Positions 2-36,394 of a stretch of DNA of 41,274 bases are shown here, piece after piece. How positions within the stretch are numbered: the stretch's first letter is position 1; every line of letters starts with the position of its first letter. The DNA comes from Pseudomonadota bacterium (GTDB lineage: Bacteria > Myxococcota > Myxococcia > Myxococcales > Anaeromyxobacteraceae). The translations under genes and the position numbers were made by a program. The DNA lies in the NCBI GenBank assembly GCA_023411405.1, contig JAEYOU010000117.1:1-41274 (forward strand), in the 5' to 3' direction. The notes beneath the pieces were generated by a model. The model was given only the letters and a program-made list of their open reading frames with translations, ran no database searches and was not told the DNA's origin.

Positions 2-55
2 GGGCTGCTCGCGCTCGCGGCCGTGCTGCGGCGGCGCTCGCGGGGAGCGGGGTGA
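2..55 (+). CDS. 3' end of a gene entering from the left; C-terminus GLLALAAVLRRRSRGAG* (hydrophobic helix end + Arg cluster, MYXO-CTERM-like sorting tail)
   Basis: Manual translation of frame +2 to TGA at 53-55; only 17 codons are visible. Confidence 0.5.
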   Translation, partial: GLLALAAVLRRRSRGAG

Positions 56-174: not shown

Positions 175-2625
175 TCAGGGTGCTCGCTCTGCCCAGTAGC
201 GTCGGCGCTGGAACGGATAGGTGGGGAGGGGCACTCGCTGACGCCGGGTGTGTGCCTGGTATGCACCCCAGTTCACGTCTACTCCTCCGCACCAGAGCGC
301 GCCCAGGCTGCCGAGAATGACCTCGGCGTCCGACCTCCCCTGTTCCGGAGGAGCGAGTGAGGTAAGGACCGTGCGCAGGGGGTCGAGTGCTCCGGCCTGC
401 GCCGGCCCGACCTCCAGCACAAGGGCGTCCCGCTCCTGGAGCGCTCGCAGCGCCTGCTGCGTCGACACCGCTACCTTGCGCTGCTGGGCGACCCAGTAGT
501 TCGGATCGATCGCCTGCGACGGGGTGATCCAGTCACCGGTGACGCCGGACAGGAAGCGACGGCTTGGACGGCTGAGCTTCGTTGCCTCGAGCTGCAGGTG
601 GAAGCTCGGCAGCTTCCGCGCCGCACGCTGCAACTCGGAAGCCGCGTGCGGAGCCTCGGGGGACGATGGCACGGGGCTCCATCGAGCGCAGGCCAGCAAC
701 AACGCGTCCTCGAGGGAGAAGACCCCGGCCAGACAGGCCGCCACGTACTCACCGACGCCAGCGCCGATCATGAGCCCAGGTTGGACGCCCCACTCCATCC
801 AGAGCTGCGCCAGCGCATACTCGATCGCGACGAGCGCGGGGCCTCCCAGTCCGCTCTGCCAGAGCTGCTCCGCTCGTCCGTCCGACGCAGCCGGCGGGAA
901 GAGGAGCCGGCGCAGCTCGAGCCCGAGCTGCGACCGAAGGAGGTCCGAGCACTGGTCCACGTGGGCGCGGAAGGTCGGCTCGGTCTCGTAGAGCTCCCGA
1001 GCCGTGGCTTCATGGCGCGTCTCGAGATCCGGGAACAGGAAGACGGTCGTCTGCCGGTCGGACGCCCGCGTCGGCAACGCGGGCGGGCCGCCGCTCTCCA
1101 GCGCAGCGGCCGCGTCCTGCATCTCGCGGCACACGACGCTCCGGCGATGTCCGAACGCCTTTCTGCCGACCTGGAGCGTGTAGGCCACGTCGGCGAGGCG
1201 GAGGTCCGGGTGCTGCCGCAGGTGCCGGGCCAAGGTCGCGCTCGCCGCGTCGAGCGCGTCGCGCGTCATCGCCGACAGGACGAGCAGCTGCGGCTGCCGG
1301 GTGGCCGCTCGCTGCGCGACAGGAACCTCCTCGAGGACCATGAAGACGTTGGTGCCACCCAGCCCGAAGGCGTTGACGCCGGCGCGACGCGGGTGACCAA
1401 TCGCCTCGAAGTCACGAAGGCTCTTGTTGACGAAGAACGGGCTGCCAGCAAAGTCGATCTGCGGGTGGGGACGCTCGAAGTGCAGGCTGGCCGGTATCTT
1501 CCCGCGCTCGAGCGCGAGCGCGGCCTTCACGAGGCTGGTCACGCTGGCGGCGGCGCCCAGGTGTCCGACGTTGGTCTTGACGGAGCCGAGCGCGCAGTAC
1601 TGCCTCCTGTCCGTGTGGGCCCGGAAGGCCCGCGTGAGCGCCGCCACCTCGGTCGGATCGCCCATCGCCGTCGCGACGCCGTGCGCCTCGACGTAGCCGA
1701 TGGTCTCCGGATGGACGCCCGCCGTGGCCAGGCACTCCGCGACGGCCTCAGCCTGCCCATCCACCCCCGGCGTCGCGAAGCCCATCTTCCGGGCGCCGTC
1801 GTTGTTGAGGGCGGAGCCCTTGATGACGGCGTGGATGAAGTCGCCGTCCGCCAGCGCCTCTTCGAGCCGCTTGAGGACCACCAAGCAGACGCCGTTGCCG
1901 CCGGCCACCCCCGCGGCGCGGGCGTCAAAAGCCCGGCAGTGCCCGTCCGGTGGGAAGTACCCGCCCTCCTGGTAGAGGTACCCGCAGGTCTGCGGGAGCA
2001 AGATCGACACGCCACCGGCCAGGGCCATGTCGCACTCCCGGCCGAGGAGGCTCTGATACGCCAGGTGAACGGCCGTCAGCGACGTGCAGCAGGCGGTCTG
2101 GACGTTGACGCTGGGCCCCCTGAGCCCAAGCTTGAAGGAGGCTCGAGCGGGCACATAGTCCGCGTGGTTCCCCACCGCCACCGCGAAGCCCGCCATCGAG
2201 ACGGGGACGCGAGGTCGGGGCAAGTACCTCTCGTACGTGCTGGCACCCGCGCCGGCGAAGACCCCGATCCTCCCCGGGTACTTCTCCGGAACGTACCCAG
2301 CGTCCTCGAGCGCTTCCCAGGCGCACTCCAGGAACACCCGGTGCTGCGGATCCAGGACGGTGGCCTCCTCCGGCGGAATCCCGAAGAACTCGGCGTCGAA
2401 CAGGTCGACGCCCTCGAGCAACCCCCAGGCCTTGACGTAGTGCGGGTCCCGGAGGACCGCCGGGTCCGACACGACGGCCTCCGCGTCGGAGAAGAAGGCG
2501 ATCGACTCCACGCCGTCCACCAGGTTTCGCCAGAGCTGCTCGACGTTCTTCGCTCCGGGGAAGCGCCCCGCCATCCCGACGATCGCAACGTCGCAGAGGT
2601 TGTCCTGCGGCTCGGCCTCGCTCAT
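175..2625 (-). CDS. Stand-alone type I PKS didomain: KS + degenerate AT, no ACP/TE (816 aa)
   Basis: ATG at 2625 overlaps the upstream TGA (TGATG). KS motifs VAIVGMAGRFPGA, QTACCTS, EAHGVAT, KTNVGH. AT active-site GHSxG replaced by GAGVGEY (745-765). Ends right after the post-AT linker LPTYPFQRRRYW. Confidence 0.9.
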   Translation of the reverse strand: MSEAEPQDNLCDVAIVGMAGRFPGAKNVEQLWRNLVDGVESIAFFSDAEAVVSDPAVLRDPHYVKAWGLLEGVDLFDAEFFGIPPEEATVLDPQHRVFLECAWEALEDAGYVPEKYPGRIGVFAGAGASTYERYLPRPRVPVSMAGFAVAVGNHADYVPARASFKLGLRGPSVNVQTACCTSLTAVHLAYQSLLGRECDMALAGGVSILLPQTCGYLYQEGGYFPPDGHCRAFDARAAGVAGGNGVCLVVLKRLEEALADGDFIHAVIKGSALNNDGARKMGFATPGVDGQAEAVAECLATAGVHPETIGYVEAHGVATAMGDPTEVAALTRAFRAHTDRRQYCALGSVKTNVGHLGAAASVTSLVKAALALERGKIPASLHFERPHPQIDFAGSPFFVNKSLRDFEAIGHPRRAGVNAFGLGGTNVFMVLEEVPVAQRAATRQPQLLVLSAMTRDALDAASATLARHLRQHPDLRLADVAYTLQVGRKAFGHRRSVVCREMQDAAAALESGGPPALPTRASDRQTTVFLFPDLETRHEATARELYETEPTFRAHVDQCSDLLRSQLGLELRRLLFPPAASDGRAEQLWQSGLGGPALVAIEYALAQLWMEWGVQPGLMIGAGVGEYVAACLAGVFSLEDALLLACARWSPVPSSPEAPHAASELQRAARKLPSFHLQLEATKLSRPSRRFLSGVTGDWITPSQAIDPNYWVAQQRKVAVSTQQALRALQERDALVLEVGPAQAGALDPLRTVLTSLAPPEQGRSDAEVILGSLGALWCGGVDVNWGAYQAHTRRQRVPLPTYPFQRRRYWAERAP

Positions 2626-5600
2626 CAGGACCTCCGCCGTCGCATCGCTGCCCTGCGTGCGGTACCCCGGCCCATGCTCTCCTCGAAGTTCTGCGACGTC
2701 GGCGCCCGGCCGACGAGCTCCGCCCATCCGCGCACCGTGGGGTTCCTGAAGATGTCGACGATGGGGATCTCCCTCGCGTACGTCTCCTGGAGCTTGCGCT
2801 GGACGCGCACCATCAGCAGCGAGTCACCGCCCACCTCGAAGAAGTTGTCGTGCACGCCCAGGCGAGCGACGTGGAGCAGCTCCTGCGTGAAGCTCGCGAT
2901 CGTCTGCTCCACCTCGTTGCTGGGCGCCACGTACTCCGATCTGGCCTGGTGCAATGCCTTCTGGCCCGGCGAGGGCAAGGCCCGGCGATCCACCTTGCCG
3001 TTGGGGGTGAGCGGCAACTCGTCCAGCACCACGTAGGTCGAGGGCACCATGTGCGCGGGGAGCTTGGCCTTCAGGAACGAGGCCAGCGCGTCCTGCTTGA
3101 ACCGCCGTGCGGTGGGAGGCGCCTGGGCGAGCATCACGTGCTGGCCCAGGCGCGCGGTCGCGTCGCCAGGCTCCGGGAAGGCAGCGAAGCGCGAGAACCC
3201 GCGAGCGAGGAGGAGCCGCTCCCACTCGCCTGGCGGGAGGAAGGGGACGTTTCGCTCCGTCCGCTCGTCGTCGAACGCGCTCATGCCCTCGATGAACCCC
3301 ACCGTCATCATCTGCCAGCGGGCGTAGCGCGTCCCCTCGACCATCAGCAGCACTCCCCCCGGCGCGAGCAGCGAGAGGAGGTTCGGCAGGGTCTGCTGCA
3401 GGCTCCGCGCGTCATGGAGCACGTTGGCGGCCACGATCGCGTCGTAGGCGTGCAGCGCGTAGCCCTGCACCTCCGGACCTTCGTCGATGTTCAGCAGGCC
3501 GTACTCGACGAACGGGTACTCCCGGAACTTCTGCCGGGCCTGATCCGTGAAGAACGTGGATCGATCGGTGTACGTGTAGACGGTCGCATCGGGCGGCAGG
3601 CGCGGCAGCAGCGAGGCCGTCGTCCCGCCGGTGCCGGCGCCAACCTCGAGCACCCGCAACGGCTGCCCGGCCGGCCACCGCCTCGCCAGCCCCTCCATCA
3701 CCCCCGCCGCGATGGCGTTGTAGTACTGCGACACGGGGTTGAACTGGTACAGGCTCTCGGCGGTCTCCCACGAGCCGCCCGGGAAGAAGAGGTCGAGCGG
3801 GTCCGCCTGCCCCCGGAGCATGGCCGTCAGGTGGGCTCCGCTCTCCGTCAAGTACGAGAGGAGCGCCTGCGCTTCCGACCCGACCTCTCCGGCGCCTCGC
3901 TGGAGTCGGTCCCACTCCTCGCGCTGCCTGTCCGGCAGGTCCGTCGGCAGGGGCTCCGGGCAGGCATAGGCCTCCCCTCGGCTCCGGAGCAGGCCCTCCT
4001 CACGAAGCGCCTCGAGCCACTGGCCCACGAGCTTCCGGTAACGGGGCAGGATCTCGAAGCGCGTCAGCAGCTCGTCCAAGGTGTGGGCGGCTCCCGCCTG
4101 TTCGAACGCGCCCAGCTCCCTGAGAGCGCGGCACAGGTATCCGATGCTCAGCCTGTCCAGGGCGTCCATGGCGCGCGCGAGGCCATCGAGGTCGGCGGGA
4201 GCACGCTTCGCCTGCGACCCTCCCGCGTCCACCAGGTGATCCCAGCGGAGCTGCACCTGCGCGGCGTCCGCCGTGTCCGTCTCGAACAGCTCCGCGTCCT
4301 TGCCTGGAGCGGGCACGATGTATGCGACGAGTTGCTTGTCGCCGCGCGGATCGCCTACCGCCTGCACGACCCCGGTACGCAGGCCCGGATGGCGCTCCAG
4401 CGTCGCCTCGATCTCGCCGAGCTCCACCCGGTGCCCGCGGATCTTCACCTGCGAGTCGTCCCGCCCCAGGAACTCGACGTTGCCGTCGGGCAGGTACCGC
4501 CCCCAGTCGCCGGTGCGGTACAGCCGTTCGCCGGTCCGTGGGTGAACGATGAAGCGGGCGCGGGTCTTCTCGTCGTCACGCCAGTACCCCTTCGCCAACC
4601 CGACGCCGCCGATGTAGAGCTCTCCGGGCACCCAGACCGGGCGAAGCTCGAGCCGGGCGTCGAGCACCTCGAGGGTCTGGTTCACCATCGGTCTGCCGTA
4701 CGGGATGCTCTTCCAGCCCGGCTCCACGCGACCGACGGGGTAGAGGATCGACCAGATCGAGGCCTCCGTCGCGCCGCCGAGGCTGACGACGGCGAGCGGC
4801 GCCTCGGCGCGCTCGCGGATGCGGTCGGGAAGCGTCACCGGGATCCAGTCGCCGCTCATCATCACCAGGCGCAGGGATGCGGGCAGCCGCCTCCTCATCC
4901 CCTCGACGTACTCGACGAGCATCTCCATCAGCTCGGGCACCGTGTTCCAGAGCGTGACCTGATGCTCCTCGAGGAGGCGGGCCCAATGCGCTGGATCGCG
5001 ACCCCCTCCCGCAGAGGGGATCACCACCGTCCCGCCGGCCCCCAGGACGCCGAACAGGTCGTAGACCGACAGGTCGAAGCTGAGGGACGAGAGCGCCAGC
5101 ACCCGATCGCGCGGCTGGACCCCGAAGCGCCGATTCACGTCCAGGCAGGTGTTGAGCGCGCCGCGATGGTCGATCATCACTCCCTTGGGCGCTCCCGTGG
5201 ACCCGGAGGTGAAGATGACGTAGGCAAGGTCGTCCGGCGACTGGACCGGCGCCGGGGAGGAGTCGTCCGCGTCCTCCCAGGCACGATCACCGATGACGAC
5301 ACGCCGGATCTCGGCGGGCCAGTCGAAGCTCCTGTCGATCCAGGGCTGCGTGAGGACGACCGACACCCCTCCATTCTCCAGGAGGAAGCGAACCCGCTCC
5401 GGAGGGAGCGCCGGGTCGATCGGGAGGTAGGCGGCTCCTGACGCCAGGACGCCCAACGCCGCCACGACCTGCTCCCAGCCCTTCTCCATCACGATCCCGA
5501 TCAGCTGGTTGGGACGAGCGCCGAGCTGCCGGAGCCGGTTGCCGACCTGGTTGGACCGACGATGGACCTCGCCGTAAGAGAGCGTGCGGAGCGGGGTGAT

Positions 5601-7250
5601 GATGGCCGGGAGGTCGGGGGCGTGCACCGCATGCTGGAGGAACGGCTGGTGGAGCAGGCCGTCCGGCACGGGTTCCCTCGTCGCGCTGATCGCCGCGCGC
5701 TGCTCCAGCTGGGCTTCCGGCACGAGCGTGAAGGACGATCCCCACGCCTGCGGCTCGTCGGCGAGTCGCCGCAGCAGCCGGCAGTAGGCGCCGAACATGT
5801 CGTCCAGCATCCCGGGCGGGAAGAGCTCCTCGACGGCGTCCCAGCTGAGCACCAGCGCACCGCGCTCCTCGAACACCTGGTGATCGAGCCACACCTGAGG
5901 AGTCTGGCTGACGCCAAACACGCTCCTGCCGAGCTCGGTGAAGGAAGAGATCTCCTGGCCCGCATCCTCCAGCGCCAGCGCGCTGGTGAAGACGACGGGC
6001 ATGCCGGACATGGCGGCGTGCCCCTGTGCGCGGGACAGCTCACGCAGGACGCGCACGCCGTTCACCTGGCTGTGCTCGAGGTCCTGCCAGAGCTGCTCGT
6101 GGATGCGCCGCGCATGCGCCTCGAAGCTGTCGGGCGAGCCGTCCACCTCGACCAGGATCGTCGCGGTGAAGTCGCCGACGACTTCGGTCACCTGGGGATG
6201 GAGCGGGAGCCGGTTGAAGTAGGTGAGGTTGAGCGTGAAGCGCGGGCTCTTGCTCCACGAGGCCAGCACCCTCGAGAAGGCCGCGAGGACCACCTCCGAC
6301 GGCGTCAGGTGGGCGCGGGACGCGTTCGCCCGGAGACGTCCCCAGGTCTCGGGGTCGACGGTCTCGCGACGCCGGACGAAGCGCGGCTGGGTCACGGCAG
6401 CAGGCGCCTTGGCCAGCGGCAGCTCGACCGAGCCCGGCATCGTCGCCAGGCGATCTCGCCAGTAGTTCAGATCGCGCTGGTAGCTCTCCGACGTCTCGAG
6501 CGCTGCCTGGGCCAGGACATAGTCGCGGAAGGAGAGCTCCAGGGGAGCGAGCCGCGCCTGGGGATCGCGGTAGAGCTGGAGCAGCTCGGCGAGCACGATC
6601 CGAGAGCTCCAGACGTCTCCCACCAGCAGGTCGAAGCTGATGTGGAGCCGCGTCACCCGATCGTCGAGCCGGCTTGCGCGCACCTCGAACAGCGGCCACT
6701 GGTCGGCGGGCAGCACCTGGTGCGACATGCGCTCGCGGATCGCCTCGAGCTCGCGCGCCTGCTCCTCCGGCGCCCGCCCTCTGAGATCCAGCACCTCGAT
6801 CCGGTAGGGGGGCACCTGCTCCAGGATCCGCTGGTGCCCGTCGGACAGCACGACCGCGCGGAGCATGTCGTGACGCTCCACGACCTTCTGCCAGGCGCAG
6901 CCAAAGCGCTCCAGGTCGAGGTCGTCGTAGTCGTCCTCGGTGTACGAGTGGCAGGCCACATTCCCGAGTTCGAACGCTCCGCTCCGCCCGAGCCAGTAGG
7001 CTCGCTGGATGTCGGTGAGCGGGAACGGCTCGTGGCGCTGCGCCGGCGCGGGCACGAGCGTCGGAGCCGAGCCCCCCTTTCCTCGTCGCTCGCGCAGGAG
7101 GGTGACCAGCTGCGCCTTGTGCGCCGTCAGCCGCTCCCGCAGCCCGGGCGTGAGCGTCCCCTCAGGCGCGCGGTAGCGCAGCCGCTCACCCTCCAGCCAC
7201 AGCTCCACGCCTTGCTTGGTCAGGTCACCCAGCAGCTCGTCCATGCTCAT
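2625..7250 (-). CDS. NRPS: N-terminal docking domain-Cy-A(Cys)-embedded MT-PCP (1541 aa)
   Basis: ATG at 7250 overlaps the upstream stop (ATGA). TubC-N-like start (LLGDLTKQGVELWLEGERLRYRAP); Cy motif DLLVGDVWS and SQTPQVWLD; A motifs YVIFTSGSTGAPKGV, FDLSVYD, GGATEASIWS (hand-read code DLYNMSLIW = Cys); MT VLEVGAGTGG / ANVLH inserted near the A C-terminus; PCP FFEVGGDSL. Confidence 0.93.
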   Translation of the reverse strand: MSMDELLGDLTKQGVELWLEGERLRYRAPEGTLTPGLRERLTAHKAQLVTLLRERRGKGGSAPTLVPAPAQRHEPFPLTDIQRAYWLGRSGAFELGNVACHSYTEDDYDDLDLERFGCAWQKVVERHDMLRAVVLSDGHQRILEQVPPYRIEVLDLRGRAPEEQARELEAIRERMSHQVLPADQWPLFEVRASRLDDRVTRLHISFDLLVGDVWSSRIVLAELLQLYRDPQARLAPLELSFRDYVLAQAALETSESYQRDLNYWRDRLATMPGSVELPLAKAPAAVTQPRFVRRRETVDPETWGRLRANASRAHLTPSEVVLAAFSRVLASWSKSPRFTLNLTYFNRLPLHPQVTEVVGDFTATILVEVDGSPDSFEAHARRIHEQLWQDLEHSQVNGVRVLRELSRAQGHAAMSGMPVVFTSALALEDAGQEISSFTELGRSVFGVSQTPQVWLDHQVFEERGALVLSWDAVEELFPPGMLDDMFGAYCRLLRRLADEPQAWGSSFTLVPEAQLEQRAAISATREPVPDGLLHQPFLQHAVHAPDLPAIITPLRTLSYGEVHRRSNQVGNRLRQLGARPNQLIGIVMEKGWEQVVAALGVLASGAAYLPIDPALPPERVRFLLENGGVSVVLTQPWIDRSFDWPAEIRRVVIGDRAWEDADDSSPAPVQSPDDLAYVIFTSGSTGAPKGVMIDHRGALNTCLDVNRRFGVQPRDRVLALSSLSFDLSVYDLFGVLGAGGTVVIPSAGGGRDPAHWARLLEEHQVTLWNTVPELMEMLVEYVEGMRRRLPASLRLVMMSGDWIPVTLPDRIRERAEAPLAVVSLGGATEASIWSILYPVGRVEPGWKSIPYGRPMVNQTLEVLDARLELRPVWVPGELYIGGVGLAKGYWRDDEKTRARFIVHPRTGERLYRTGDWGRYLPDGNVEFLGRDDSQVKIRGHRVELGEIEATLERHPGLRTGVVQAVGDPRGDKQLVAYIVPAPGKDAELFETDTADAAQVQLRWDHLVDAGGSQAKRAPADLDGLARAMDALDRLSIGYLCRALRELGAFEQAGAAHTLDELLTRFEILPRYRKLVGQWLEALREEGLLRSRGEAYACPEPLPTDLPDRQREEWDRLQRGAGEVGSEAQALLSYLTESGAHLTAMLRGQADPLDLFFPGGSWETAESLYQFNPVSQYYNAIAAGVMEGLARRWPAGQPLRVLEVGAGTGGTTASLLPRLPPDATVYTYTDRSTFFTDQARQKFREYPFVEYGLLNIDEGPEVQGYALHAYDAIVAANVLHDARSLQQTLPNLLSLLAPGGVLLMVEGTRYARWQMMTVGFIEGMSAFDDERTERNVPFLPPGEWERLLLARGFSRFAAFPEPGDATARLGQHVMLAQAPPTARRFKQDALASFLKAKLPAHMVPSTYVVLDELPLTPNGKVDRRALPSPGQKALHQARSEYVAPSNEVEQTIASFTQELLHVARLGVHDNFFEVGGDSLLMVRVQRKLQETYAREIPIVDIFRNPTVRGWAELVGRAPTSQNFEESMGRGTARRAAMRRRRS

Positions 7251-10200
7251 AGCTCGCCCTCCTCCCACCCGATCCGTCCGCCCAGCAGCGTGTGGACATG
7301 GACGTGGCTCTCGTCGAGATCGAAGAGCTGCGCGATCGGCTCGAACTGGATGTTGCCGATCTGACAGAGCCCGATCCGACAAGACGGCGCCGTGCTCTCC
7401 AGGAGCTGCGCCATGAGTCCGGCCTCGACCAGCGCGAAGTCCCGACTCCTCTTGCCGTACAGCGGCGCGATGGCGCCGAGCTGCGCGATGAAGAAGATGG
7501 AGAAGGCCGACTCGTCGAAGATCGTCTGGTTCTCGAAGAAGTGGATCTTGCGGTCGATCCGACCCGTGCCGGACAGCAGCACGAGACCGTTCCCCGCCGG
7601 GTCGTGGTAGTACACGCCCCCGGCGACGCCCTCGACCCGACCCGGCTTGACGAACAGGTACGTCTGGACGGCGTAGGTGGGGCCGGCAGAGCCGTAGAGG
7701 TACTTGGGAAGACCGTCCACGGTGAGCGGGCACAGGCAGCGCAGCAGCCTGCCGAGCTGCTCCAGCGCGATCGGCTGGCGCACGAACCGGCGGTGGCTGC
7801 GCCGCTCTGCGTACAGCCTCCGCATGGCCTCGTCCAGCTCCGGCGCGGGCAGCCCGATTCGCGCGGGCGCCCCGGAGATCGAACGCACGCCGTGCCGCGC
7901 CTTCTTGAACCTCTCTCGCTCCTCGGGATCGAGCAGCACCTTGAACGACGCCAGGATTGGGTCCTCCGACGCTCCCGCCGCTGCGGGCGCCTCGCCCGGG
8001 CCCAGGCGTTGCTCGTAGAACGAGGCGATCCCACCGAGCGTCTGGATGCGGAAGAACTCGGCGAGCTCCGGCCGGGAGCCGAACTCCTTCTCCAGGAGGT
8101 TGGCCATCCGGATCAGGTCGACCGAGGTCGCGCCGAGCTCCAGGAAGTTGGTGCCTCCGTCCACCTTCTGCTTCAGCACCTCCTCCGCGATCGAGACGAC
8201 CTTCGCCGTGACTCCGCTCCCGGCGGCCCGCGCCGGCGAAGCCGCCGTCGCGTCGGGGGCAGGCAGGGCCTTCCGATCCACCTTGCCGTTGGCGGTGAGC
8301 GGCAAGGCGCTCAGGGACACGTAGGTGCCCGGCACCATGTACGCGGGGAGCTTGCGCTCGAGCCACTCGCGGAGGCCGGCGGGAGTGGGCGCCTCGGCCG
8401 CGGCAGAGGGCACCACGTAGGCGACGAGCCGCCGATCGCCGCGCGGATCGCCGATGGCCGCGACGGCGACGGTCCGGACGGCTGGGTGCTGCTCCAGCGC
8501 GGCCTCGATCTCCCCGAGCTCGATCCGGTAACCATGGACCTTGACCTGAAGATCCTCCCGCCCCAGGAACTCGATGTCCCCGTTCGGCAGGTAACGCCCC
8601 AGGTCGCCGGTCGCGTAGAGCCGCTCGCCGGTCCGGGGATGGGTGATGAACCGGGCCCGGGTCTTCTCCTCGTCTCCCCAGTAGCCGCGCGCCAGGCCGA
8701 CGCCGCCGATGTAGAGCTGGCCGGAGACCCAGACCGGACAGGGCTCCAGCAGCGCGTTGAGGACGTGGAACTGCTGGTTCACCATCGGCTTGCCGTACGG
8801 GATGCTCTTCCACTCCGGATCGACGTGGTCGATGGGGTGGAGGATGGACCAGATCGAGGCCTCGGTGGCGCCGCCGAGGGACACGATCTGGACGTCGCGC
8901 CGCGCGAGGCGCCGGATCCGGTCCGGGAGCGCCACCGGGATCCAGTCACCGCTCATCAGCACGACGCGCAGCGACGGCGGGAGGTGGGAACCGCGACCGG
9001 CCTCGTACTCGACCAGCAGCTCCATCAGCGCAGGGACGCTGTTCCAGAGCGTCACTCGCTCGCGCTCCACGAGCGCCGCCCAGTGAGCGGGGTCACGCCG
9101 CTCTTCCCGGGAGGGGAGGACGACGGTGCCGCCGGCGCCCAGCACACCGAACACGTCGTACACGGAGAGATCGAACCAGAGCGCCGACAGGGCCAGCACG
9201 CGGTCGTCCGGGCCCACCGCGAAGCGCTCGTTGACGTCCACGCAGGTGTTGAGCGCGCCGCGATGATCGATCATCACGCCCTTCGGAGCGCCCGTCGATC
9301 CGGAGGTGAAGATCACGTAGGCCAGGTCCTCGGGGGCCTGGACCGAGGCCAGCGGACGGTCGTCCACGCCCACCCACGACGCGTCCTCGACCACCAGGCG
9401 AACGCTCCCCGCCGGCCAGCGCACGGCGTCGCGCAGCTGCGGCTGCGTGAGCACCACCTCGACCTGCCCATTCTCGAGCAGGTAGCGGATCCGTTCCTCG
9501 GGGAGCGATGGATCGATGGGCAGGTAGGCCGCGCCCGAGGACAGCACGCCCATCACCGCGACCACCTGCTCCCACCCCTTCTCCATGACCACGCCGACGA
9601 GCCGATTGGGCTTCGCGCCCAGCTCGCGCAGACGCCGGCCCAGCTGGTCGGCGCGCCGCCGCAGCTCGCCGTACGTCAAGCTGCGCTCCCCGGACACGAC
9701 GGCGATCTGCTCGGGCCGCCGCGCCGCCTGCGCGAGGAAGGGCTCGTGGAGCAGCCCGCTCGGCACCGGCGCCTGGGTCCCGTTCGCGGAGGCGCGCTGT
9801 GCGAGCTGCGCCGCGGGGACGAGCCGTGGAGTGGCCTCCTGCCACGCCTCGTCACCGTCGGCGAGACGCTGAACGAACCCGCGGTAGGCCGCGAGCATGT
9901 CGTCGAGCATCCCCGCCGGGAAAAGCTCTTCCAGCGCGTCCCAGCTCAAGACCAGCTTGCCGTCTTGCTCGAAGACCTGGTGGTCCAGCCAGACCTGCGG
10001 CGTCTGCGAGACGCCATAGACCTGCTTGCCCTCGCCCATGAGGAGGGACTTCGCTCCGCCCCAGGACTCCTGGACGAGCGTGCTCGTGAAGACCACGGGT
10101 ACGGACGCCGTCTGGCTGCTCCGGAGCCGGATGAGCTCGCGCTGAACCTGGACACCGCCGACATAGCGATGCTCCAGATCCTCCCAGAGCCGCTCCTGCA

Positions 10201-20854: not shown

Positions 20855-22072
20855 TCACACGTGCGTCATCGCGGTCACTGGGGACAACCGGGCCGCCTTG
20901 ACCGCGGGATACAGCGAGGCGAACACGCAGACGAGCCACATCGCGCCGATGGCGAGCGCGACGCTCGACGCGACGACCTCGCCGCGCAGCAGCGCGTCGA
21001 ACGCGATGCCGCCGAAGCTGAAGGACGCGTCACCGAAGACGCTCAGGTCGAGCCCATGCACCTGGGTGTACCAGGCGACGCTCACGCCGAGCGCCCCCCC
21101 GACGACGGTGGCCACGAGCCCGAGCAGGAAGGCCTCGGCCGCGATGTCCCCGACGATCCGCCAGGCCGTGGCCCCCAGCGCCTTCATGGTGCCGAACTCC
21201 CGCACGCGGTCGTGCGTGGCCATGAGCATCGTGTTCAGGACGCCCAGGCAGGCCGCCGCGAAGAAGATGAACATGAAGACGAGCGACAGCGCCTCGAAGA
21301 CCTGCACGAGGTTGAAGACGACCGGGAGGAGCTCTCCCCAGGTCTTGAGCTCGAGCCCAGGCGGCAGCGGCCCGAGCGCGGCGCCCAGCGCGGCCGCGGG
21401 GCGATCGCCGAGGCTGAACGCGAGCTCGTGGACCCGTCCCCCCGACACGAAGAGCGCCTCGAAGTCGGCCCGGTGGATCAGCACCGCCCCGCGATCGACC
21501 TCCTCGCTCACGGTCTTCAGGATCCCCGCGACGCGGAAGACCTCCGTGCCGAGTGAGCCGTCCGCCGCCTGCACCACGGCGACGAGCTCGCCACCCACGT
21601 CCAGGTCGAGGCTCCGCGCCAGCTTGCGGCCGATCACGACCTCTCGCGCCGGCGCGTCTCCCAGGAAACGACCCGCCATCACCTCTCCGGGCAGGGCGAA
21701 CGCCGCGCGCTCCGCCCGCGGCTCCACGCCCCAGAGGCTCGCGCCCGCCGACTTCGTCCCCGCCGCGATGAGCCCGTCCCCGTAAGCGCGCGCCACGGCC
21801 TGGATGCCCTGCGCGGACGCGGCCTCGACGATGCGCTCGGGAGAGGGGATCGCGTCGTGGAACCTGTGGGAGCGGAGATAGCCCACCGCGTGGAGCTGGG
21901 CGTCTCCCACGACCAGCCGCGTGGCGTTGTGGACGAGCAGGCGCTGGAACCCGCCGATCAGCCCGAGCGCGACGATCAGGACGGCGGTGTTCAGCCCCAC
22001 CGCGACGATCGTGATCGCGCTCCTTCGCCGGTTCCGAAGGAGGTTGCGCCAGGCGAGCCGGAAGTCGGACAC
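20855..22072 (-). CDS. Second ABC transporter permease, FtsX/LolC-E type (alternative GTG start at 22081)
   Basis: LAWRNLLRNRRRS, MATHDRVREFGTMKALG, SLYPAVKAARLSPV. Confidence 0.9.
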   Translation of the reverse strand: MSDFRLAWRNLLRNRRRSAITIVAVGLNTAVLIVALGLIGGFQRLLVHNATRLVVGDAQLHAVGYLRSHRFHDAIPSPERIVEAASAQGIQAVARAYGDGLIAAGTKSAGASLWGVEPRAERAAFALPGEVMAGRFLGDAPAREVVIGRKLARSLDLDVGGELVAVVQAADGSLGTEVFRVAGILKTVSEEVDRGAVLIHRADFEALFVSGGRVHELAFSLGDRPAAALGAALGPLPPGLELKTWGELLPVVFNLVQVFEALSLVFMFIFFAAACLGVLNTMLMATHDRVREFGTMKALGATAWRIVGDIAAEAFLLGLVATVVGGALGVSVAWYTQVHGLDLSVFGDASFSFGGIAFDALLRGEVVASSVALAIGAMWLVCVFASLYPAVKAARLSPVTAMTHV

Positions 22073-22077
22073 GGCCT

Positions 22078-22854
22078 TCACCGCTCCAGGTTCCGAAGCG
22101 AGAAGAAGTCGTCCGAGAGCGGGATGTCGAAGCGCAGGTCGTCCTGCCGAAGCTCGGTGAGTTCGTTGGGCTTGTCCGTCACGGTGACCCTCATGACGAG
22201 CGGCACGGTGCGCTGTCCGACCCGCTTCGGCTCCTCGAAGACCATCGTGCGCGCGAGCTTCATGTCCTCGCCGAAGAAGAGCTGCCGGAGCGCCAGGCAG
22301 CTCTCTGCGTCGACCTCGACCGCCACCTTCCCCCAGACGATGGCCGCGTCCGGCTTGGGGATGCAGGTCACCTCGACGATGTTCCGGCCGTCCCGCGCGC
22401 CAGTGAAGGTCTTCTCGAACGTGTAGTCCTCGCTCATCCGGCTCTCCTTCACGAGGTCGTCGTTCGTGACGTGGCTCCCCATCCACGAGCTCGTCATCAT
22501 CGAGGCCGGGACCTTGATGGTCCGCCTGACCTTCGGCAGGTAGTTCCAGACGTTCTTCTCGACCATCAGCGTCGCCGTGCCGTGCTCCTTCGCCGGCGCA
22601 ACGATTCGCACCAGCGATCGCCGGACTCCCTTGCTCCAGGCCTCGAGCTTGAGAGTCCGCGTCCAGTGAGCCGTGACCACCTTCATCGTCGCGGTCCGGT
22701 GAGAAGACGTGCCTCGGTACATGTCGTCCACGCGATCGAGGATCTCCTTCGCGTCGAGCTGTGAGCACGACTGCGCCGCAGCCACACGCGGCGCCCCGCC
22801 GAGCGAGACGAGCAGCGGCACCACGATCGCCGAGCGAGAGCAGCGGAATGCCAT
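22078..22854 (-). CDS. Outer-membrane lipoprotein-sorting (LolA-like) periplasmic protein
   Basis: Signal peptide; motifs PAKEHGTATL, WNYLPKVRRT, SWMGSHVTNDDL, DDFFSLRNL typical of the LolA-like family. Confidence 0.85.
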   Translation of the reverse strand: MAFRCSRSAIVVPLLVSLGGAPRVAAAQSCSQLDAKEILDRVDDMYRGTSSHRTATMKVVTAHWTRTLKLEAWSKGVRRSLVRIVAPAKEHGTATLMVEKNVWNYLPKVRRTIKVPASMMTSSWMGSHVTNDDLVKESRMSEDYTFEKTFTGARDGRNIVEVTCIPKPDAAIVWGKVAVEVDAESCLALRQLFFGEDMKLARTMVFEEPKRVGQRTVPLVMRVTVTDKPNELTELRQDDLRFDIPLSDDFFSLRNLER

Positions 22855-22930: not shown

Positions 22931-23171
22931 GTATTTCGCTTCAGGAGCAGGCCTTCCCGCCCGGTGAACCCAGTCGTCGTGGCGCCAGAGCCTGCCTTCA
23001 GCTCGAGTCGCGGGGCACGCTATCAGCACTCGGTTCCCCACGCAGCCTAGGACCGCCGGTGTACCCACCATGGGTGCAACCTTGGATGGATGACAGTCTC
23101 CCCATTCGTGTGGTTCCTAATCGTCATACTCTGGGTTGCTGCTACTGACGGTCCGTTGCGGAGGCCATGAG

Positions 23172-23939
23172 GTGACCACAAGCCGCGAGCGAGCGGGGCT
23201 TCTCTGCCTTCCGTACGCGGGTGGGTCCGCGAGGATCTACCGCAGGTGGAGCGAGGAGCTCGGTCCCTCGATCGAGGTCGTTCCGCTTGAACCCGCGGGG
23301 CGCGGTACGCGCTTCGGGGAGCCCTTCCCCACCTCCATCGCCGCGGCGGTGCACGACCTCCAGAGGCGCGCCGCGCCGGCGATCCGCGGCAAGTACGCGC
23401 TCTTTGGCCACAGCATGGGCGCGCTCCTTGCCTGGGAGCTGGCGCGTGCGCTCGTCTCCGCCTCGCTCCCGCCTCCGGAGCAGCTCTTCCTCTCGGGCAA
23501 GCCGCCCCCCCACGTCGTGCCGCGAAGACCTGTCCACGCGCTGCCCGAGGCCGAGTTCTTGCGGAGCGTCGCCGCGATGGGTGGAACGCCGCGCGAGGTG
23601 CTCGAGAACGACGAGCTCATGCAGATCTTCCTGCCCGTCCTCCGCGCGGACTACCGGATGACGGAGACGTACGCTCCGCGGTCCGAGGTCGACCCACTGG
23701 ACTGCGGCATCACCTTCTTCTTCGCCACCGCCGACCCAACGCTCTCGCGCGATCAGGTGGAGGGCTGGCGGCGCTATACGCGGGGGGAGTTCCGGATCCT
23801 CGACCACGAGGGCGGGCACTTCTTCCTGCTCGAGAAGGGACGGGAGCTCGCCAGGGAGATGCGGCACGTCCTCGGTCGACCGGAGAGCACCCGCCCGGCG
23901 CCCATGTTCGTGGAGGCGGGTGACCGCGTCGAGGTCTGA
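23172..23939 (+). CDS. Type II (editing) thioesterase
   Basis: CLPYAGGSA, GHSMG, LPVLRADY, GGHFF; GTG start preceded by GGAGG. Confidence 0.92.
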   Translation: MTTSRERAGLLCLPYAGGSARIYRRWSEELGPSIEVVPLEPAGRGTRFGEPFPTSIAAAVHDLQRRAAPAIRGKYALFGHSMGALLAWELARALVSASLPPPEQLFLSGKPPPHVVPRRPVHALPEAEFLRSVAAMGGTPREVLENDELMQIFLPVLRADYRMTETYAPRSEVDPLDCGITFFFATADPTLSRDQVEGWRRYTRGEFRILDHEGGHFFLLEKGRELAREMRHVLGRPESTRPAPMFVEAGDRVEV

Positions 23940-24007
23940 CTGCGCCAAGAGCAAGCACGCGGCGCCGCGAGCTGCCCGAGCGGCGCGGCGCACGGGAGAG
24001 GTGTGTC

Positions 24008-25339
24008 ATGAGCGGCGAAGCCTCCGTGACGAGGAAGGTACCCAGGGTCGCGGCACGAGCACACGGGACCACGGAGCCTCGCCGGCCGGCGTGGGGCCGC
24101 TTCGACGGAAGCCTCCTCGACGCCTGGCAAGCGCGCGCGGCCGTCCTCGAGGCGGAGGTGCCATCCCCGCACGACCCGGAGTCGCGCGCCTATCTGGAGG
24201 CGATGGCCGCGTCCGACTTCTCCCCGTTCTTTCGGCGCCTCGAGTCCGCTGCGGCCGAGACCGCCGTCATGGACGGCTACCGGGTCGTCATGCTCGGCGC
24301 CAACAACTACCTGGGCCTCACGACGGACCCGCGCGTCACGCGGGCGAGCATCGCTGCAATCGAGCGGTACGGCACGGGCTGCACCGGCTCGCGGTTCATG
24401 AACGGCACGTTGCCGCTGCACCTCGAGCTCGAGAGCCGGATGGCCCGCTTCCTGCGCAAGGAGGCGGCGCTCGTGTTCAGCGCCGGGTTCCTCGCCAACA
24501 TCGGTGTCCTCTCCGTCGTGGCGGGCCGGCACGCTTACCTGTTCTCGGATCGTGCCAACCACGCCAGCATCTGCGACGGCATCTCGGCTTCGAGGGCCGA
24601 GCCCATGCGGTTCGAGCACAACGACCCGGACTCGCTGGCGGAGAAGCTCCGCCGCGCCCCTGCCGCCGCGGTGAAGTGGGTCGTCGTCGAGGGCGTCCAC
24701 AGCATGTTCGGCGACGTGTGCCCTCTGCGTGAGATCATCGCGGTCGCCAGGGCCCACGGAGCGCGGATCATCCTCGACGACGCCCACGGGGTCGGCGTGT
24801 TGGGGGACGCCGGGCGGGGGACGGCGAACCACCTCCAGGTCGAGGACGAGGTGGATCTGATCGTCGGCACGTTCAGCAAGTCCTTCGCCTCCTACGGCGG
24901 TTTCGTCGCGGGCGATCGAGGCACCATCGAGCAGCTGCGCTACGGGACCCGTTCCTTCATCTTCACCGCAGGGCCACCGCCGGCGACGGTCGCGACGGTG
25001 CTCGCTGCGCTCGACGTGCTCGAGCAAGATCCTGCGATCGTGAGCCGGCTGCGGCAGAACACGCTCGAGCTCGCCGGCCGCCTGCGCGCGGCAGGGCTCG
25101 TGGATCGGGATCCGCCCGCCGCGATCATTCCGCTCGTGATCGGGTCCAACGACCGCACGTGGAAGGCATGGAGGCTGCTCTACGAGGGCGGTGTCTACAC
25201 CAACGCGGCCTTCCCCCCTGGGGTTCCGGCGGGCCAGGCGCTCCTTCGCCTCTCGCTGATGGCGACCCTGCGTCCGGAGTCGATCGAGTACGCCGCAAAC
25301 GCCATCACCTCGGCGTTCCGCGTGCTGAGGCTGACGTGA
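24008..25339 (+). CDS. spt: PLP-dependent alpha-oxoamine synthase, serine palmitoyltransferase-like
   Basis: NNYLGL, GTGCTGSRFMNGT (Spt-type), NHASI, DDAHG, GTFSKSF (PLP Lys); adjacent to bCerS-like and CerR-like genes. Confidence 0.8.
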   Translation: MSGEASVTRKVPRVAARAHGTTEPRRPAWGRFDGSLLDAWQARAAVLEAEVPSPHDPESRAYLEAMAASDFSPFFRRLESAAAETAVMDGYRVVMLGANNYLGLTTDPRVTRASIAAIERYGTGCTGSRFMNGTLPLHLELESRMARFLRKEAALVFSAGFLANIGVLSVVAGRHAYLFSDRANHASICDGISASRAEPMRFEHNDPDSLAEKLRRAPAAAVKWVVVEGVHSMFGDVCPLREIIAVARAHGARIILDDAHGVGVLGDAGRGTANHLQVEDEVDLIVGTFSKSFASYGGFVAGDRGTIEQLRYGTRSFIFTAGPPPATVATVLAALDVLEQDPAIVSRLRQNTLELAGRLRAAGLVDRDPPAAIIPLVIGSNDRTWKAWRLLYEGGVYTNAAFPPGVPAGQALLRLSLMATLRPESIEYAANAITSAFRVLRLT

Positions 25340-26499
25340 CCTCGGCCTTCGCGCGGAACGCGCCGATCGTCGGGGGCGGCCCTCTCGAGGTGACACCTGT
25401 CGGCGGGGCCGAAGACCTTCGAGAGTTCGTGGAGCTGCCGGAGCGGCTTTACCAGGGAGTTCGTCACTGGGTGCCGCCGCTCCGCTCCGAGGAGCGGCGC
25501 TTCCTCTCGGAGAGGAACCCCTACGTCGCCGCAAACCCGGTGCGCCTGTTCCTGGCGCGTGAGCGTGGCGTGCCGGTGGGCCGCGTCGCCGCGACCGTGT
25601 GCAGCGCGCACAACGCGTACCACCACGAGCGAACGGGGTTCTTCGGCTTCTTCGAGTGCGATGGACGGGCGGTCACGGCACGCGCGCTGCTAGGCGCCGC
25701 CGCCCAGTACGTCCGCGACCACGGCATGCGGACCCTCCGCGGGCCGTTCAATTTCACGACCAACCACACGTGCGGCGTGCTCGTCGAAGGATTCGAAGGC
25801 CCCCCGATCATCGAGATGCCCTATCACCCGCCACACTACGGCGCGCTCCTCGAGGACGCTGGGCTCCGCAAGGCGAAGGACCTGTTCGCGCTCTGGCACG
25901 ACATCGAACAGGGGAAGCCACAGCGACAAGCGCTCGCGGGGCTCGCGCGCGCCGCGCCCGCCGCGTACGCCGTGCGGGAGCTGCGGCGCTCGGGGCGAGG
26001 CTTCGCGGAGGACATGGACCGCTTCTACGACCTCTATCATCAGGCCTGGCGGGGAAACTGGGGCTTCGTCCCGGTCCCACGCGACGAGTTCGTCTACATC
26101 GGGAGGCGGATGCAGTCTCTCTTGAGGCCCGGGCTCTGCCACGTGGTCACGGTCCGGGGGGAGACGGCCGGGATGGTGATCAACCTCCCCGACTACAGCC
26201 CGGTGCTGTCCGCGCTCCGGGGCCGAGTGACGCCCGGGGGCGCCTTGCGGGCCTGGTGGGCGAGCCGTCGCGTCGACGCGAGCCGCTGCATCCTCGTCGG
26301 CGTGTACGATCGGTTCCGGGGAACGCCGGCCACCACCCTGCTCGTGCACCACCTGCTCGAGGGAGCGGCGCGAGCGGGGTACCGAGGCGTCGAGACCTCG
26401 TGGGTGCTGGAGGACAACGCCGCATGCCTTCGAGGCTTCGGGAAGCACGGGTTCGTGCCGTACCGGCGCTACCGGATCTACGAGCAGCCGGTGGCCTGA
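25336..26499 (+). CDS. GNAT-fold N-acyltransferase, bacterial ceramide synthase (bCerS/YghO)-like (387 aa)
   Basis: GTGA overlap with spt; motifs WVPPL, GRVAA, GFFGFFE, LRGPFN, MPYHPPHY, WRGNWGFVP, SWVLEDN, YRIY. Confidence 0.78.
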   Translation: MTSAFARNAPIVGGGPLEVTPVGGAEDLREFVELPERLYQGVRHWVPPLRSEERRFLSERNPYVAANPVRLFLARERGVPVGRVAATVCSAHNAYHHERTGFFGFFECDGRAVTARALLGAAAQYVRDHGMRTLRGPFNFTTNHTCGVLVEGFEGPPIIEMPYHPPHYGALLEDAGLRKAKDLFALWHDIEQGKPQRQALAGLARAAPAAYAVRELRRSGRGFAEDMDRFYDLYHQAWRGNWGFVPVPRDEFVYIGRRMQSLLRPGLCHVVTVRGETAGMVINLPDYSPVLSALRGRVTPGGALRAWWASRRVDASRCILVGVYDRFRGTPATTLLVHHLLEGAARAGYRGVETSWVLEDNAACLRGFGKHGFVPYRRYRIYEQPVA

Positions 26500-26510
26500 A
26501 GGGGGGCGCC

Positions 26511-27512
26511 ATGTCCGTGCCACGTACAGGCGACGACTCCGTGCTGGTCACCGGCGCCAGCGGCTTCATCGGCCGGGCACTCGTCTCGGAGCTGATGCTC
26601 CAGGGGCGGAACGTCAGCGCACTGGTCCGGCGGCGCGAGCAGGCGATCGCGCTCGGTGCCCGGCCGGTGGTCGGCGATGTCACCGACCCCGACTCGCTCG
26701 TCGGGTTCGGCGCGTTCTCGGAGGTGTACCACCTGGCCGGCACGATCGCGGCGCGGAGCGCCGCCGAGTTCCAGCGCATCAACGCGGACGGGTGCTGCCA
26801 CCTCTACCGCGCGCTGCGGCGCGCCCTCCGCCCTCCCCGGCGCATCGTCCACGTGAGCAGCATCGCGGCTGGTGGGCCGGCCGCAGACGCGACGCCTCGA
26901 CGCGAGGACGATCCGGACGTACCCGTGTCGATTTACGGCCGCACCAAGCACGCCGGCGAGGAGGTCGCGCGCGCCTTCATGGGCGACATTCCACTCGTCA
27001 TCCTCCGGCTGCCCGCCGTGTACGGCCCCGGGGACCGAAACCTGCTCCCCATCTTTCGCATGGCACGGCGCGGGCTCGTTCTGCGCCCGCCGGCGCAGCC
27101 CAAGCTCTTCAGCCTCGCCCACGTCGGCGACGTCGCGCGCATCCTGATCCGCGCCGCGGCGACGGAGTCGATCGTCGGCGGGCTCTACAACGTCGCCACC
27201 GGCTCGCCCGCGAGCTGGGACGAGCTCGTGGCCGAGATCGGCGCCGCCATGGGCCGCCGCCCGCGCCAGCTCTCGCTGGGCCGGCTGCCGTGGGTGGCGG
27301 CGGCCTACGCCAACGCGGGCCGCTGCTGGCTCGAGCGCGGAGCCCGCGTCGAGCTGCTCATCCCGCAGAAGCTCCCCGAGCTCTTCGAGCGCTACTGGCA
27401 CGTGGATGGCGGGCGCCTGCAGTCGGCGCTGGGCCACGTCACGACGACGCCCCTGGCGCAGGGGCTCGCGCAAACGGCGGAGTGGTATCGCCAGCAGGGT
27501 TGGCTGCGATGA
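26511..27512 (+). CDS. Extended SDR / NAD-dependent epimerase-dehydratase family; candidate ceramide (3-keto) reductase
   Basis: VLVTGASGFIG, HVSS, YGRTK, LRLPAVYGP; role inferred from gene context. Confidence 0.8.
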   Translation: MSVPRTGDDSVLVTGASGFIGRALVSELMLQGRNVSALVRRREQAIALGARPVVGDVTDPDSLVGFGAFSEVYHLAGTIAARSAAEFQRINADGCCHLYRALRRALRPPRRIVHVSSIAAGGPAADATPRREDDPDVPVSIYGRTKHAGEEVARAFMGDIPLVILRLPAVYGPGDRNLLPIFRMARRGLVLRPPAQPKLFSLAHVGDVARILIRAAATESIVGGLYNVATGSPASWDELVAEIGAAMGRRPRQLSLGRLPWVAAAYANAGRCWLERGARVELLIPQKLPELFERYWHVDGGRLQSALGHVTTTPLAQGLAQTAEWYRQQGWLR

Positions 27513-36061: not shown

Positions 36062-36394
36062 TCAGGTTCGCCGCCCCGTCTCCACGTGGTCCGCGAGCAC
36101 GGAGCCGACCCGATCGGCGAGGATCATCTCGCAGCCGGGCACCGCCTTCGCGAAGTGGCGCGAGAGGCCGGTGATGGTGCCGCCCGAGCCTACGCCGCAG
36201 ACCATCGCGTCGATCCGGCCCCCGAGCTGCTCGACGATCTCGGGCCCGGTGGTCGCCTCGTGCGCGGCCGGGTTGGCGGGGTTGGCGAACTGGTTGACGT
36301 AGAAGGCGCCCTCGTCGCGGGCGAACCGCTCGGCCAGGTCCTGGTAGTACTCCGGGTGACCCTTCTCCACGTCGGAGCGGGTGATGATGACCTC
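36062..36394 (-). pseudogene. Internal fragment of cystathionine beta-synthase / cysteine synthase family gene
   Basis: EVIITRSDVEKGHPEYYQD, NQFANPAN, TTGPEI, GVGSGGT; the N-terminal PLP-Lys region and the C-terminus are missing. Confidence 0.8.

Follow-up and report, generated by a model that had tools for sequence, protein, structure and literature searches.

What can a ketosynthase (KS) do at the end of an assembly line when it is followed by a broken acyltransferase (AT) and by neither a carrier nor a release domain? The question is raised by a gene at positions 175 to 2,625, minus strand, of a 41,274-nucleotide (nt) stretch of DNA from a Pseudomonadota bacterium (family Anaeromyxobacteraceae in the GTDB lineage; GenBank assembly GCA_023411405.1, contig JAEYOU010000117.1, positions 1 to 41,274), and this whole stretch is called the window here. 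The gene encodes a protein of 816 amino acids (aa). We tentatively explain it as a truncated module with a relic AT, in which the KS survives as a non-elongating unloader of the last peptidyl carrier protein of the line (PCP2). The parts of the gene and of its 3' surroundings are the following.

175..2625, minus strand: whole gene, encoding KS, linker domain, relic AT (AT0) and post-AT linker; 816 aa, stop codon at 175-177
2623..2640, minus strand: translational coupling; GGAGG, then ATG, with a 1-base overlap with the TGA of the upstream nonribosomal peptide synthetase (NRPS) gene (TGATG)
1315..2592, minus strand: KS domain, residues 12-437 (Pfam PF00109/PF02801)
1066..1314, minus strand: KS-AT linker (flanking) domain, residues 438-520 (Pfam PF16197, PF22621, PF22336; predicted local distance difference test (pLDDT) score ~90)
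256..1065, minus strand: relic AT, residues 521-790 (Pfam PF00698, partial)
178..255, minus strand: post-AT linker, with LPTYPF at 211-228 and 11 further residues before the end of the protein
2..52, plus strand: 3' end of a convergent open reading frame (ORF), ...GLLALAAVLRRRSRGAG and stop; a 17-residue C-terminal tail cut by the contig end

The minus-strand ORF covers 175..2727, and the ATG at 2625-2623 was chosen as the start in agreement with the N-termini of homologs. A GGAGG Shine-Dalgarno sequence lies 5 nt upstream of this ATG, the stop codon is TGA at 175-177, and an identical protein (P0004) is present in the protein collection. When relatives bearing an acyl carrier protein (ACP) or a ketoreductase (KR) were used in tblastn, the homology formed one continuous frame from 2625 to 187; across all 816 codons the homology to relatives keeps to one frame, and neither compensating frameshifts nor out-of-frame remnants of the AT small subdomain or of an ACP were found in any frame. 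Judged by its sequence, the gene is real, expressed and the last of a fatty-acyl-primed polyketide synthase (PKS)/NRPS operon.

The N- and C-terminal KS domains of Pfam were matched with 241.3 and 132.3 bits (cut-off 20.8). The catalytic Cys179 (2089-2091) lies in QTACCTS, His315 (1681-1683) in EAHGVAT with Val317 beside it, and His355 (1561-1563) in NVGHLG, and both Lys350 and the gating Phe420 are kept, so that by sequence the domain has the Pfam domains and the Cys, His, Lys, His and Phe residues of a type I PKS KS. Non-elongating KS (KS0) domains of trans-AT PKSs are usually without the His of HGTGT, according to the accessible part of a preprint (bioRxiv 10.1101/2020.01.28.923383); this hallmark is absent here, as His315 is retained. 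The neighbours of the motifs are changed (S180C, T317V, S418N, H428F). The original prediction, made from the letters alone, had described a KS with its Cys-His-His set kept and its neighbours altered (HGVAT instead of HGTGT, TACCTS instead of TACSSS). The three residues were read from the translation as described, and HGVAT is unusual indeed, T317 being conserved in at least 90% of relatives. TACSSS was the wrong yardstick, because the clade consensus is QTACSTS, so only S180C stands out in QTACCTS.

The AT lacks the features of an active enzyme, namely the GHSxG Ser, the GQG loop, the small subdomain and the HAFH/YASH His. FPDLE (1021-1035) is found in place of FPGQG, with loss of the GQG loop, and GAGVG (residues 621-625, 751-765) in place of GHSxG. 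The nucleophile Ser is thereby gone; it is kept in 196 of 206 non-window homologs, which are those with a recognisable nucleophile elbow and post-AT motif. Pfam Acyl_transf_1 gave 55.7 bits only, with profile positions 1-116 of 319 covered. From Arg648 to Ser693 there are 46 residues, compared with a median of 104 (range 104-110) in 110 full-length ATs of relatives. The 58 missing residues comprise the small (ferredoxin-like) subdomain and the HAFH His; no HAFH-type motif is left, and a 44-residue filler (550-681) stands where the subdomain was deleted. The loss of Ser, the FPDLE replacement and the internal deletion had all been pointed out beforehand and were confirmed.

The AlphaFold2 model of the protein reached a mean pLDDT of 85.9 and a predicted template modelling score (pTM) of 0.87. 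The KS was mostly above 90, and only the deletion junction (residues 652-661) fell below 50. The Atlas model (pTM 0.89) aligned over residues 515-816 with AT models at template modelling (TM) scores of 0.77-0.86 by query. The best solved structural matches were KS-AT didomains of hybrid lines, ClbI (query-normalised TM score, TMq, 0.85-0.86) and CurL. By sequence and predicted fold, the protein sits among the KS-AT didomains of hybrid NRPS-PKS lines, and the AT, in our explanation, remains only as a scaffold made up of its large subdomain and of two linkers wrapped around the KS.

After LPTYPF the protein has only QRRRYWAERAP before its stop codon, and no match to a PP-binding domain was found in its 816 aa, so that there is no carrier domain to complete a module. 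The prediction that it would stop after LPTYPF with no carrier or release domain was therefore right, 11 residues aside. The source contig has 41,288 nt, practically the length of the window; the stop lies 174 nt from its end. In these 174 nt, tblastn with the ACP- or KR-bearing relatives gave no trace of KR or ACP in any frame, and the ACPs of the relatives matched only the upstream PCP2. The carriers of the window found by Pfam and motif scan are ACP0, ACP1, PCP1 and PCP2 only. A consensus scan for a terminator downstream gave 0 sites, and the 125-nt segment 53-177 (stop codon and intergenic sequence) folded no better than its shuffles (z = -0.39). Both an out-of-frame remnant of a carrier and a terminator 3' of the gene had been considered and were dropped, as none was found. 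That the next gene is convergent agrees with the ORF tail at 2-52, a tail which may be MYXO-CTERM-like; the claim is based on those 17 residues at the contig end. The further claim that no downstream module exists goes beyond what a contig ending 174 nt after the stop allows.

Is the damaged AT peculiar to this gene? Short ATs were found in 10 of the 206 non-window homologs (160-192 residues from elbow to PTYPF, against 240-259), most of them without Ser (GHGLG, GHGIG, GLDVG, GEGIG, GQGVG, GQHKG), and two further homologs had a Ser-less AT of full length. A representative search, most of whose matches were giant multimodular PKSs, supplied long multimodular relatives with 239 AT-like sites, of which 14 were short; ten of the 14 had no Ser and one read GAGVG. 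In a tree of KS plus linker with the AT columns left out, the sister of the window protein was P0005 (support 0.97), whose short AT reads GHGLG, followed by P0052 and P0006, both with a full-length AT and GHS. The original prediction had asked whether the degeneration is conserved in homologues; it is shared with the sister and turns up repeatedly in the clade. We conclude that the relic AT predates the split from P0005, and that it is inherited and not a recent decay. The other short-AT lineages are scattered over the tree, and the residual AT segments of relic-AT proteins measure 17-48 residues where full ATs have 104; because of this scatter and these different lengths, relic ATs must arise or spread repeatedly in this KS clade. 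A profile search of genomes with the relic-AT alignment gave 79 loci among the matches listed, all with a full-length AT as called from 62-109-residue gaps in tblastn. Since the AT lesion is common to the sister and the clade, it says nothing on a special role of the 175-2625 gene.

The end of the protein is another matter. All 17 relic-AT relatives whose downstream sequence was examined continue past the AT: into an ACP (P0009, P0027, P0031, P0032, P0130, P0195), into a KR (P0005, possibly truncated by the end of its contig), into a second linker and a full AT (P0124, P0126, P0201) or, in 7 of 7 long proteins scanned, into KR-ACP-KS-AT-KR-ACP. Counted from where the PTYPF match begins, the window protein has 16 residues left, and all other short-AT proteins have at least 119. 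None of the relic-AT relatives examined shares the carrier-less end of the window protein. In relatives, an ACP or KR-ACP follows a like relic AT, so it was on the window lineage that the carrier disappeared; this loss is not recent, because the KS branch is the longest of 123 and about 100 substitutions are specific to the lineage. It had been argued that a complete module in homologous clusters would mean recent decay at this locus; the first half of this was borne out by the ACP or KR-ACP of the relatives, and the second half was not. No ortholog above 58% identity was found among similar or longer lengths in a protein collection of 5.8 billion clusters.

Two groups of relatives differ in layout. 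Five proteins of about 1400 aa (P0124, P0126, P0127, P0143, P0201) form a tight clade (support 1.0) with KS, short relic AT, a second KS-AT-type linker and a full AT; a dead AT is kept ahead of a live one, and the KS deviates at 15-22 conserved columns. Seven proteins of 2468-3082 aa (P0304, P0268, P0292, P0302, P0324, P0341, P0333) are bimodular, KS-AT0-KR-ACP-KS-AT-KR-ACP. Their live AT lies in the second module only, a hint that both carriers are served by a single AT.

The two domains of the window protein have changed in different ways. The terminal branch of its KS measured 0.545, compared with a median of 0.181 and 0.181 in the sister P0005. Among 128 columns with a conservation of 95% or more, 15 carried a deviation (about 12%; median of relatives 2): Y164F, S180C, V184T, S225P, G247C, A285T, A298C, T317V, G361S, G364S, I366V, N387H, W406F, S418N and H428F. 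Only the KS-AT0-AT group equals or exceeds this number; in the KS of other relic-AT relatives, five of the seven checked had 0-3 deviations and P0130 had 7. With P0052 and P0006 as outgroups, 61 lineage-specific substitutions were assigned to the window and 16 to P0005 in the KS (p=2e-7), 43 and 9 in AT0 (p=2e-6), and 12 and 7 in the linker (not significant). The KS substitutions had a mean BLOSUM62 score of +0.51 (sister +0.44), and none of 5000 simulations under a crude neutral expectation (-0.44), built from single-nucleotide changes that start from GC-ending codons, reached it. In AT0 the neutral value was -0.63, and the observed mean of -0.49 was reached in 28% of simulations; the scores of the two domains differed (Mann-Whitney p=0.0007). 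The G+C content at third codon positions (GC3) was 0.909 in the KS, 0.909-0.919 in the two NRPS genes and 0.824 in AT0. Conservative substitutions and a normal GC3 indicate that the KS is still under purifying selection. These patterns suggest that the KS fold is selected with shifted constraints, that the attached AT0 scaffold has lost most of its constraint, and that the relic AT drifts near-neutrally.

The same data bear on the most serious rival, which we consider rather doubtful. It holds that the protein is a vestige: the KR-ACP and further domains were deleted or rearranged away, the stump is translated without a catalytic role, and a type II thioesterase (TE) or an Spt-like synthase, both encoded nearby, empties PCP2. 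The KR or KR-ACP behind the relic AT of the sister and of seven long relatives would agree with this, as would the end of the window protein exactly at a domain boundary, the longest terminal branch, the 15 changed near-invariant columns with T317V and H428F among them, the AT0 substitutions indistinguishable from neutral with their lowered GC3, and the lack of an ortholog in the protein collection. A mere stump is harder to reconcile with KS substitutions as conservative as those of the functional sister and far from the neutral simulation, with the normal GC3 of the KS, with the intact upstream coupling and Shine-Dalgarno sequence, and with a fold that is predicted confidently. The 2.45 kb also contain no frameshift or stop despite the ~100 lineage-specific substitutions, although ORF integrity alone is weak evidence, open frames being cheap at 70% GC.

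What the KS might receive depends on the line upstream. The operon was defined by a frame-specific GC3 scan together with Pfam and NCBIfam scans in a window of about 70% G+C, and its other genes are the following.

15729-17738, minus strand: fatty acyl-AMP ligase (FAAL; Pfam, NCBIfam)
about 14557-15747, minus strand: acyl-CoA/ACP dehydrogenase (ACAD; Pfam, NCBIfam)
14238-14540, minus strand: free ACP0 (Pfam, NCBIfam)
7247..14230, minus strand: KS-AT-ACP-Cy-A-PCP-Ox protein, which holds the only intact AT of the window (FPGQG, GHSLG)
2625..7250, minus strand: upstream donor with a TubC-type docking domain, Cy, A with embedded methyltransferase, and PCP2 (Pfam)

The line thus runs from FAAL, ACAD and ACP0 through KS-AT-ACP-Cy-A-PCP-Ox and Cy-A(MT)-PCP (MT, methyltransferase) to the 816-aa KS-AT0 protein, and the gene junctions have overlaps of 4 nt (ATGA) and 1 nt (TGATG). 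The Ser motif of PCP2, GGDSL, was located near 2834 by motif scan. Both A domains carry DLYNLSLIWK, which we take to be a cysteine code. Because both read in this way, the chain that reaches PCP2 is probably a beta-ketoacyl-derived lipo-thiazole-(methyl)thiazoline. ACP0 has GMTSI in place of the usual GxDS at its phosphopantetheine site, and by NCBIfam (43 bits) it is similar to the ACP at the N-terminus of Pks13. In the 2625-7250 protein, the methyltransferase occupies residues 1185-1352, within the C-terminal portion of the second A domain of cysteine type, and the N-terminal TubC-type docking domain pairs this protein with the upstream one.

Our explanation starts from the relatives, in which the relic AT is followed by KR-ACP or ACP, with a carrier that is presumably trans-loaded. 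On the window lineage, all that comes behind the post-AT linker was lost, and AT0 began to drift. The lipo-thiazolyl-(methyl)thiazolinyl chain would pass from PCP2 to Cys179, and the acyl-enzyme so formed would be resolved with no cognate carrier involved. Its partner in this may be water, an amine or another nucleophile of the Spt-like/GNAT-like pathway, or the free ACP0 by back-transfer. In effect, the KS would be an unloading or hand-over catalyst like the carrier-less terminal KS enzymes. The original prediction, right in its description of the gene, had proposed either a transacylase to a free ACP or CoA or one round of elongation in trans, and these are two among several possible readings. 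The anatomy, the inherited relic AT, the unique carrier-less end and the pattern of selection are what the sequence data show; the acyl transfer to Cys179 and all later steps we infer. The retained His residues would fit a base-catalysed unloader or a split module. A Dieckmann or aldol release like that of TAS1 or SalC was also considered and set aside by reasoning, since the sole activated methylene would close an 8-membered ring.

Several points weigh against the KS as a non-elongating unloader. Activity of any sort is a deduction from the sequence, and the longest branch, the loss of downstream domains and the lack of an ortholog would also fit a decaying remnant. The retained HGTGT His fits an elongating KS at least equally well. 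The retention of Cys-His-Lys-His is weak evidence too, with a chance survival of ~60% given that 12% of conserved sites have changed, a figure that is our own arithmetic from the deviation count at conserved columns. SalC is no closer to the window protein than ordinary KS-ATs are (364 vs 634 bits), and by our own reasoning the predicted thiazoline-carbonyl substrate has no obvious aldol or Dieckmann route. With the contig end 174 nt downstream, partner genes may exist beyond it. The selection argument itself depends on the crude neutral expectation, and the fraction of glycine, alanine, arginine and proline (GARP) in the window KS, 0.37, is the highest of the set, GARP and deviations being correlated with rho 0.30. 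Composition thus accounts for part of the rate excess. Other relatives high in GARP deviate at 1-3 columns only, and the idea that GC-driven composition alone had accelerated the KS was therefore dropped.

A split module is a further alternative, which we regard as unlikely. The KS would elongate once on a carrier encoded elsewhere, either ACP0 or an off-contig ACP, which the module-1 AT, FabD or a trans-AT would load, and the beta-ketoacyl-carrier would feed a TE or an Spt-like enzyme. This would account for the full Cys-His-Lys-His set, including the HGTGT His usually lost in KS0, and the early contig end leaves room for such a carrier. Relic-AT relatives, moreover, keep carriers and a near-normal KS (5/7 with 0-3 deviations), which requires trans loading, and the relic-AT modules ClbK_PKS and ClbO are fed a pre-formed extender as described in the available text of bioRxiv 10.1101/530204. 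The window itself offers little for this chemistry. It has no spare carrier, ACP0 being the partner of FAAL and lying 8 nt upstream of the module-1 KS. The Pfam scan of 29 ORFs gave no trans-AT or extender-unit gene, and the only other AT is that of module 1. The next visible gene is convergent, and 15 near-invariant KS sites are changed, in contrast to 0-3 in most carrier-bearing relic-AT relatives. The constraint on AT0, kept in the sister, is lost here, which fits the loss of the scaffold's user.

The colibactin modules are among the closest described parallels to the anatomy. In ClbO and ClbK_PKS the KS is also followed by an AT-shaped inactive relic, after thiazole-forming Cy-A-PCP modules and near the end of a hybrid line; in the part of bioRxiv 10.1101/530204 that is accessible, these ATs are called an "ancestral inactive relic". 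The window model superposes on the colibactin KS-ATs ClbI (TMq 0.85) and ClbC (0.76). In sequence, ClbI with its live AT (GHSLG) comes closest to the protein at 634 bits, followed by ClbC with 417 and ClbK with 360 bits. The colibactin relic-AT modules have their own ACP and, in the text available to us, aminomalonyl extender units made by the cluster; in the window, neither an ACP behind the relic nor a trans-AT nor extender genes were found. Of the traits of a trans-loaded relic-AT module it thus has the inactive relic, and its own ACP and a trans-AT or extender pathway were not found in the 29 ORFs. The unnamed relic-AT modules of the same clade (KS-AT0-ACP and KS-AT0-KR-ACP-KS-AT-KR-ACP) are 50-56% identical and share a lost Ser and a deleted small subdomain, with a Pfam AT match over the first 116-140 profile positions. 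They differ in that a carrier or further domains follow and that 5/7 have 0-3 KS deviations, compared with 15 here.

The unloading reading has its own parallels among off-loading KS enzymes. SalC (salinosporamide) and LctC (lactacystin) are stand-alone KS-like cyclases, carrier-less and with a flanking domain, which take a PCP-bound chain onto Cys and then release it, according to the available portion of PMC11730586. SalC is homologous to residues 9-515 of the window protein (7s2x, E 2e-107, 364 bits). SalC and LctC have no AT relic, and in the same portion their substrate is a beta-keto/aldehyde acyl-aminoacyl thioester suited to aldol/lactone chemistry. TAS1, which makes tenuazonic acid, has a terminal KS without AT or ACP that is needed for the release of a PCP-bound chain; as far as the accessible text goes, it is fungal, has a Cys-His-Asn triad, is fused to the NRPS and carries out Dieckmann cyclisation of an acetoacetyl-amino acid, and the C-A-PCP-KS layout is said there to be found only in fungi (PMC4640141). 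In the window protein, a KS without active AT or ACP follows a PCP as in these enzymes; a specific sequence kinship to SalC/LctC or TAS1 was not found, and the triad is Cys-His-His. In monensin biosynthesis, the finished chain moves from the last module to a discrete ACP (ACPX) before release, as given in the accessible part of PMC3943991. A dedicated ACPX serves there, while the only free ACP here is the priming ACP0. The monensin hand-over, reportedly done by a KS-like protein, is a precedent for the transacylase of the original prediction. The literature search gave no matching system with a terminal or ACP-less KS-AT protein.

Release may also involve a divergent set of neighbours.

23136..27512, plus strand: divergent operon with type II TE, Spt-like alpha-oxoamine synthase, GNAT-like ORF and short-chain dehydrogenase/reductase (SDR), which may join in release

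The nearest solved relatives of the type II TE are RifR, RedJ-type and YbtT, and those of the Spt-like synthase are the bacterial serine palmitoyltransferases (328 bits). The GNAT-like match was below threshold (E 0.002-0.003). Of the Spt and bCerS neighbours of the original prediction, the Spt-like enzyme is well supported, and an SDR is present beside it. An Spt, an acyltransferase and a reductase are the three core enzymes of bacterial ceramide synthesis, as stated in the available section of PMC11087976. The order Spt-like, GNAT-like, SDR in the window matches that of spt/bcerS/cerR, in support of the gene types named in the original prediction; gene order is no evidence of product use, and a link of these genes to the 816-aa KS could at most be deduced. 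Behind the SDR, the operon extends to 29168 (plus strand) with two CPBP-family membrane proteases.

A quite improbable elaboration would have the KS bridge the NRPS/PKS line and a bacterial ceramide-type pathway, passing the chain via ACP0 to the Spt-like synthase or onto a sphingoid amine. C-N bond formation has been proposed for the KS domains of ClbK and ClbO in the accessible text of bioRxiv 10.1101/530204. Such a pathway would yield a hybrid thiazole-sphingolipid, and the adjacent LolA-like, MacB-like and outer-membrane-barrel genes would export it. The region 17608-22854 (minus strand), upstream of the FAAL gene, contains two FtsX/MacB-type permeases, a LolA-like protein and a 430-aa ORF without family, which ends in ...STFYF and is outer-membrane-barrel-like; these genes look like a lipid-export set. 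Within it, 18912-19593 is rich in Arg as translated, probably in a wrong frame, and carries no annotation. No myxobacterial thiazole/Spt cluster was matched in the literature search.

That the gene merely continues, its apparent end being an assembly or annotation artefact of a contig break or misassembly, is very improbable, because even though the contig is practically the window, ends 174 nt past the stop and bears a transposase fragment at its other end, the TGA lies 174 nt inside it, the next 122 nt have no KR/ACP similarity in any frame and are followed by the convergent ORF tail, and the homology stops exactly at a domain boundary. Elsewhere in the window, a 102-aa fragment of a pyridoxal phosphate (PLP)-dependent (PALP) enzyme lies at 36062-36370 (minus strand; profile positions 115-200 of 295 only), and a Mutator-family transposase fragment at 40710-41252 (plus strand) at the contig end. 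Each of the two seems to be what is left of a gene.

Neither relic ATs nor stand-alone off-loading KS enzymes are new in themselves. Short, Ser-less ATs recur in this KS clade at ~5% of AT positions, and automated annotation labels them "AT". If our explanation is true, a relic-AT module without a carrier but with a selected KS would be an intermediate from an elongation module to a release or transfer enzyme, and it would show how assembly lines shorten and re-terminate. If the KS also links the line to its Spt-type neighbours, the product would be a new lipid class.

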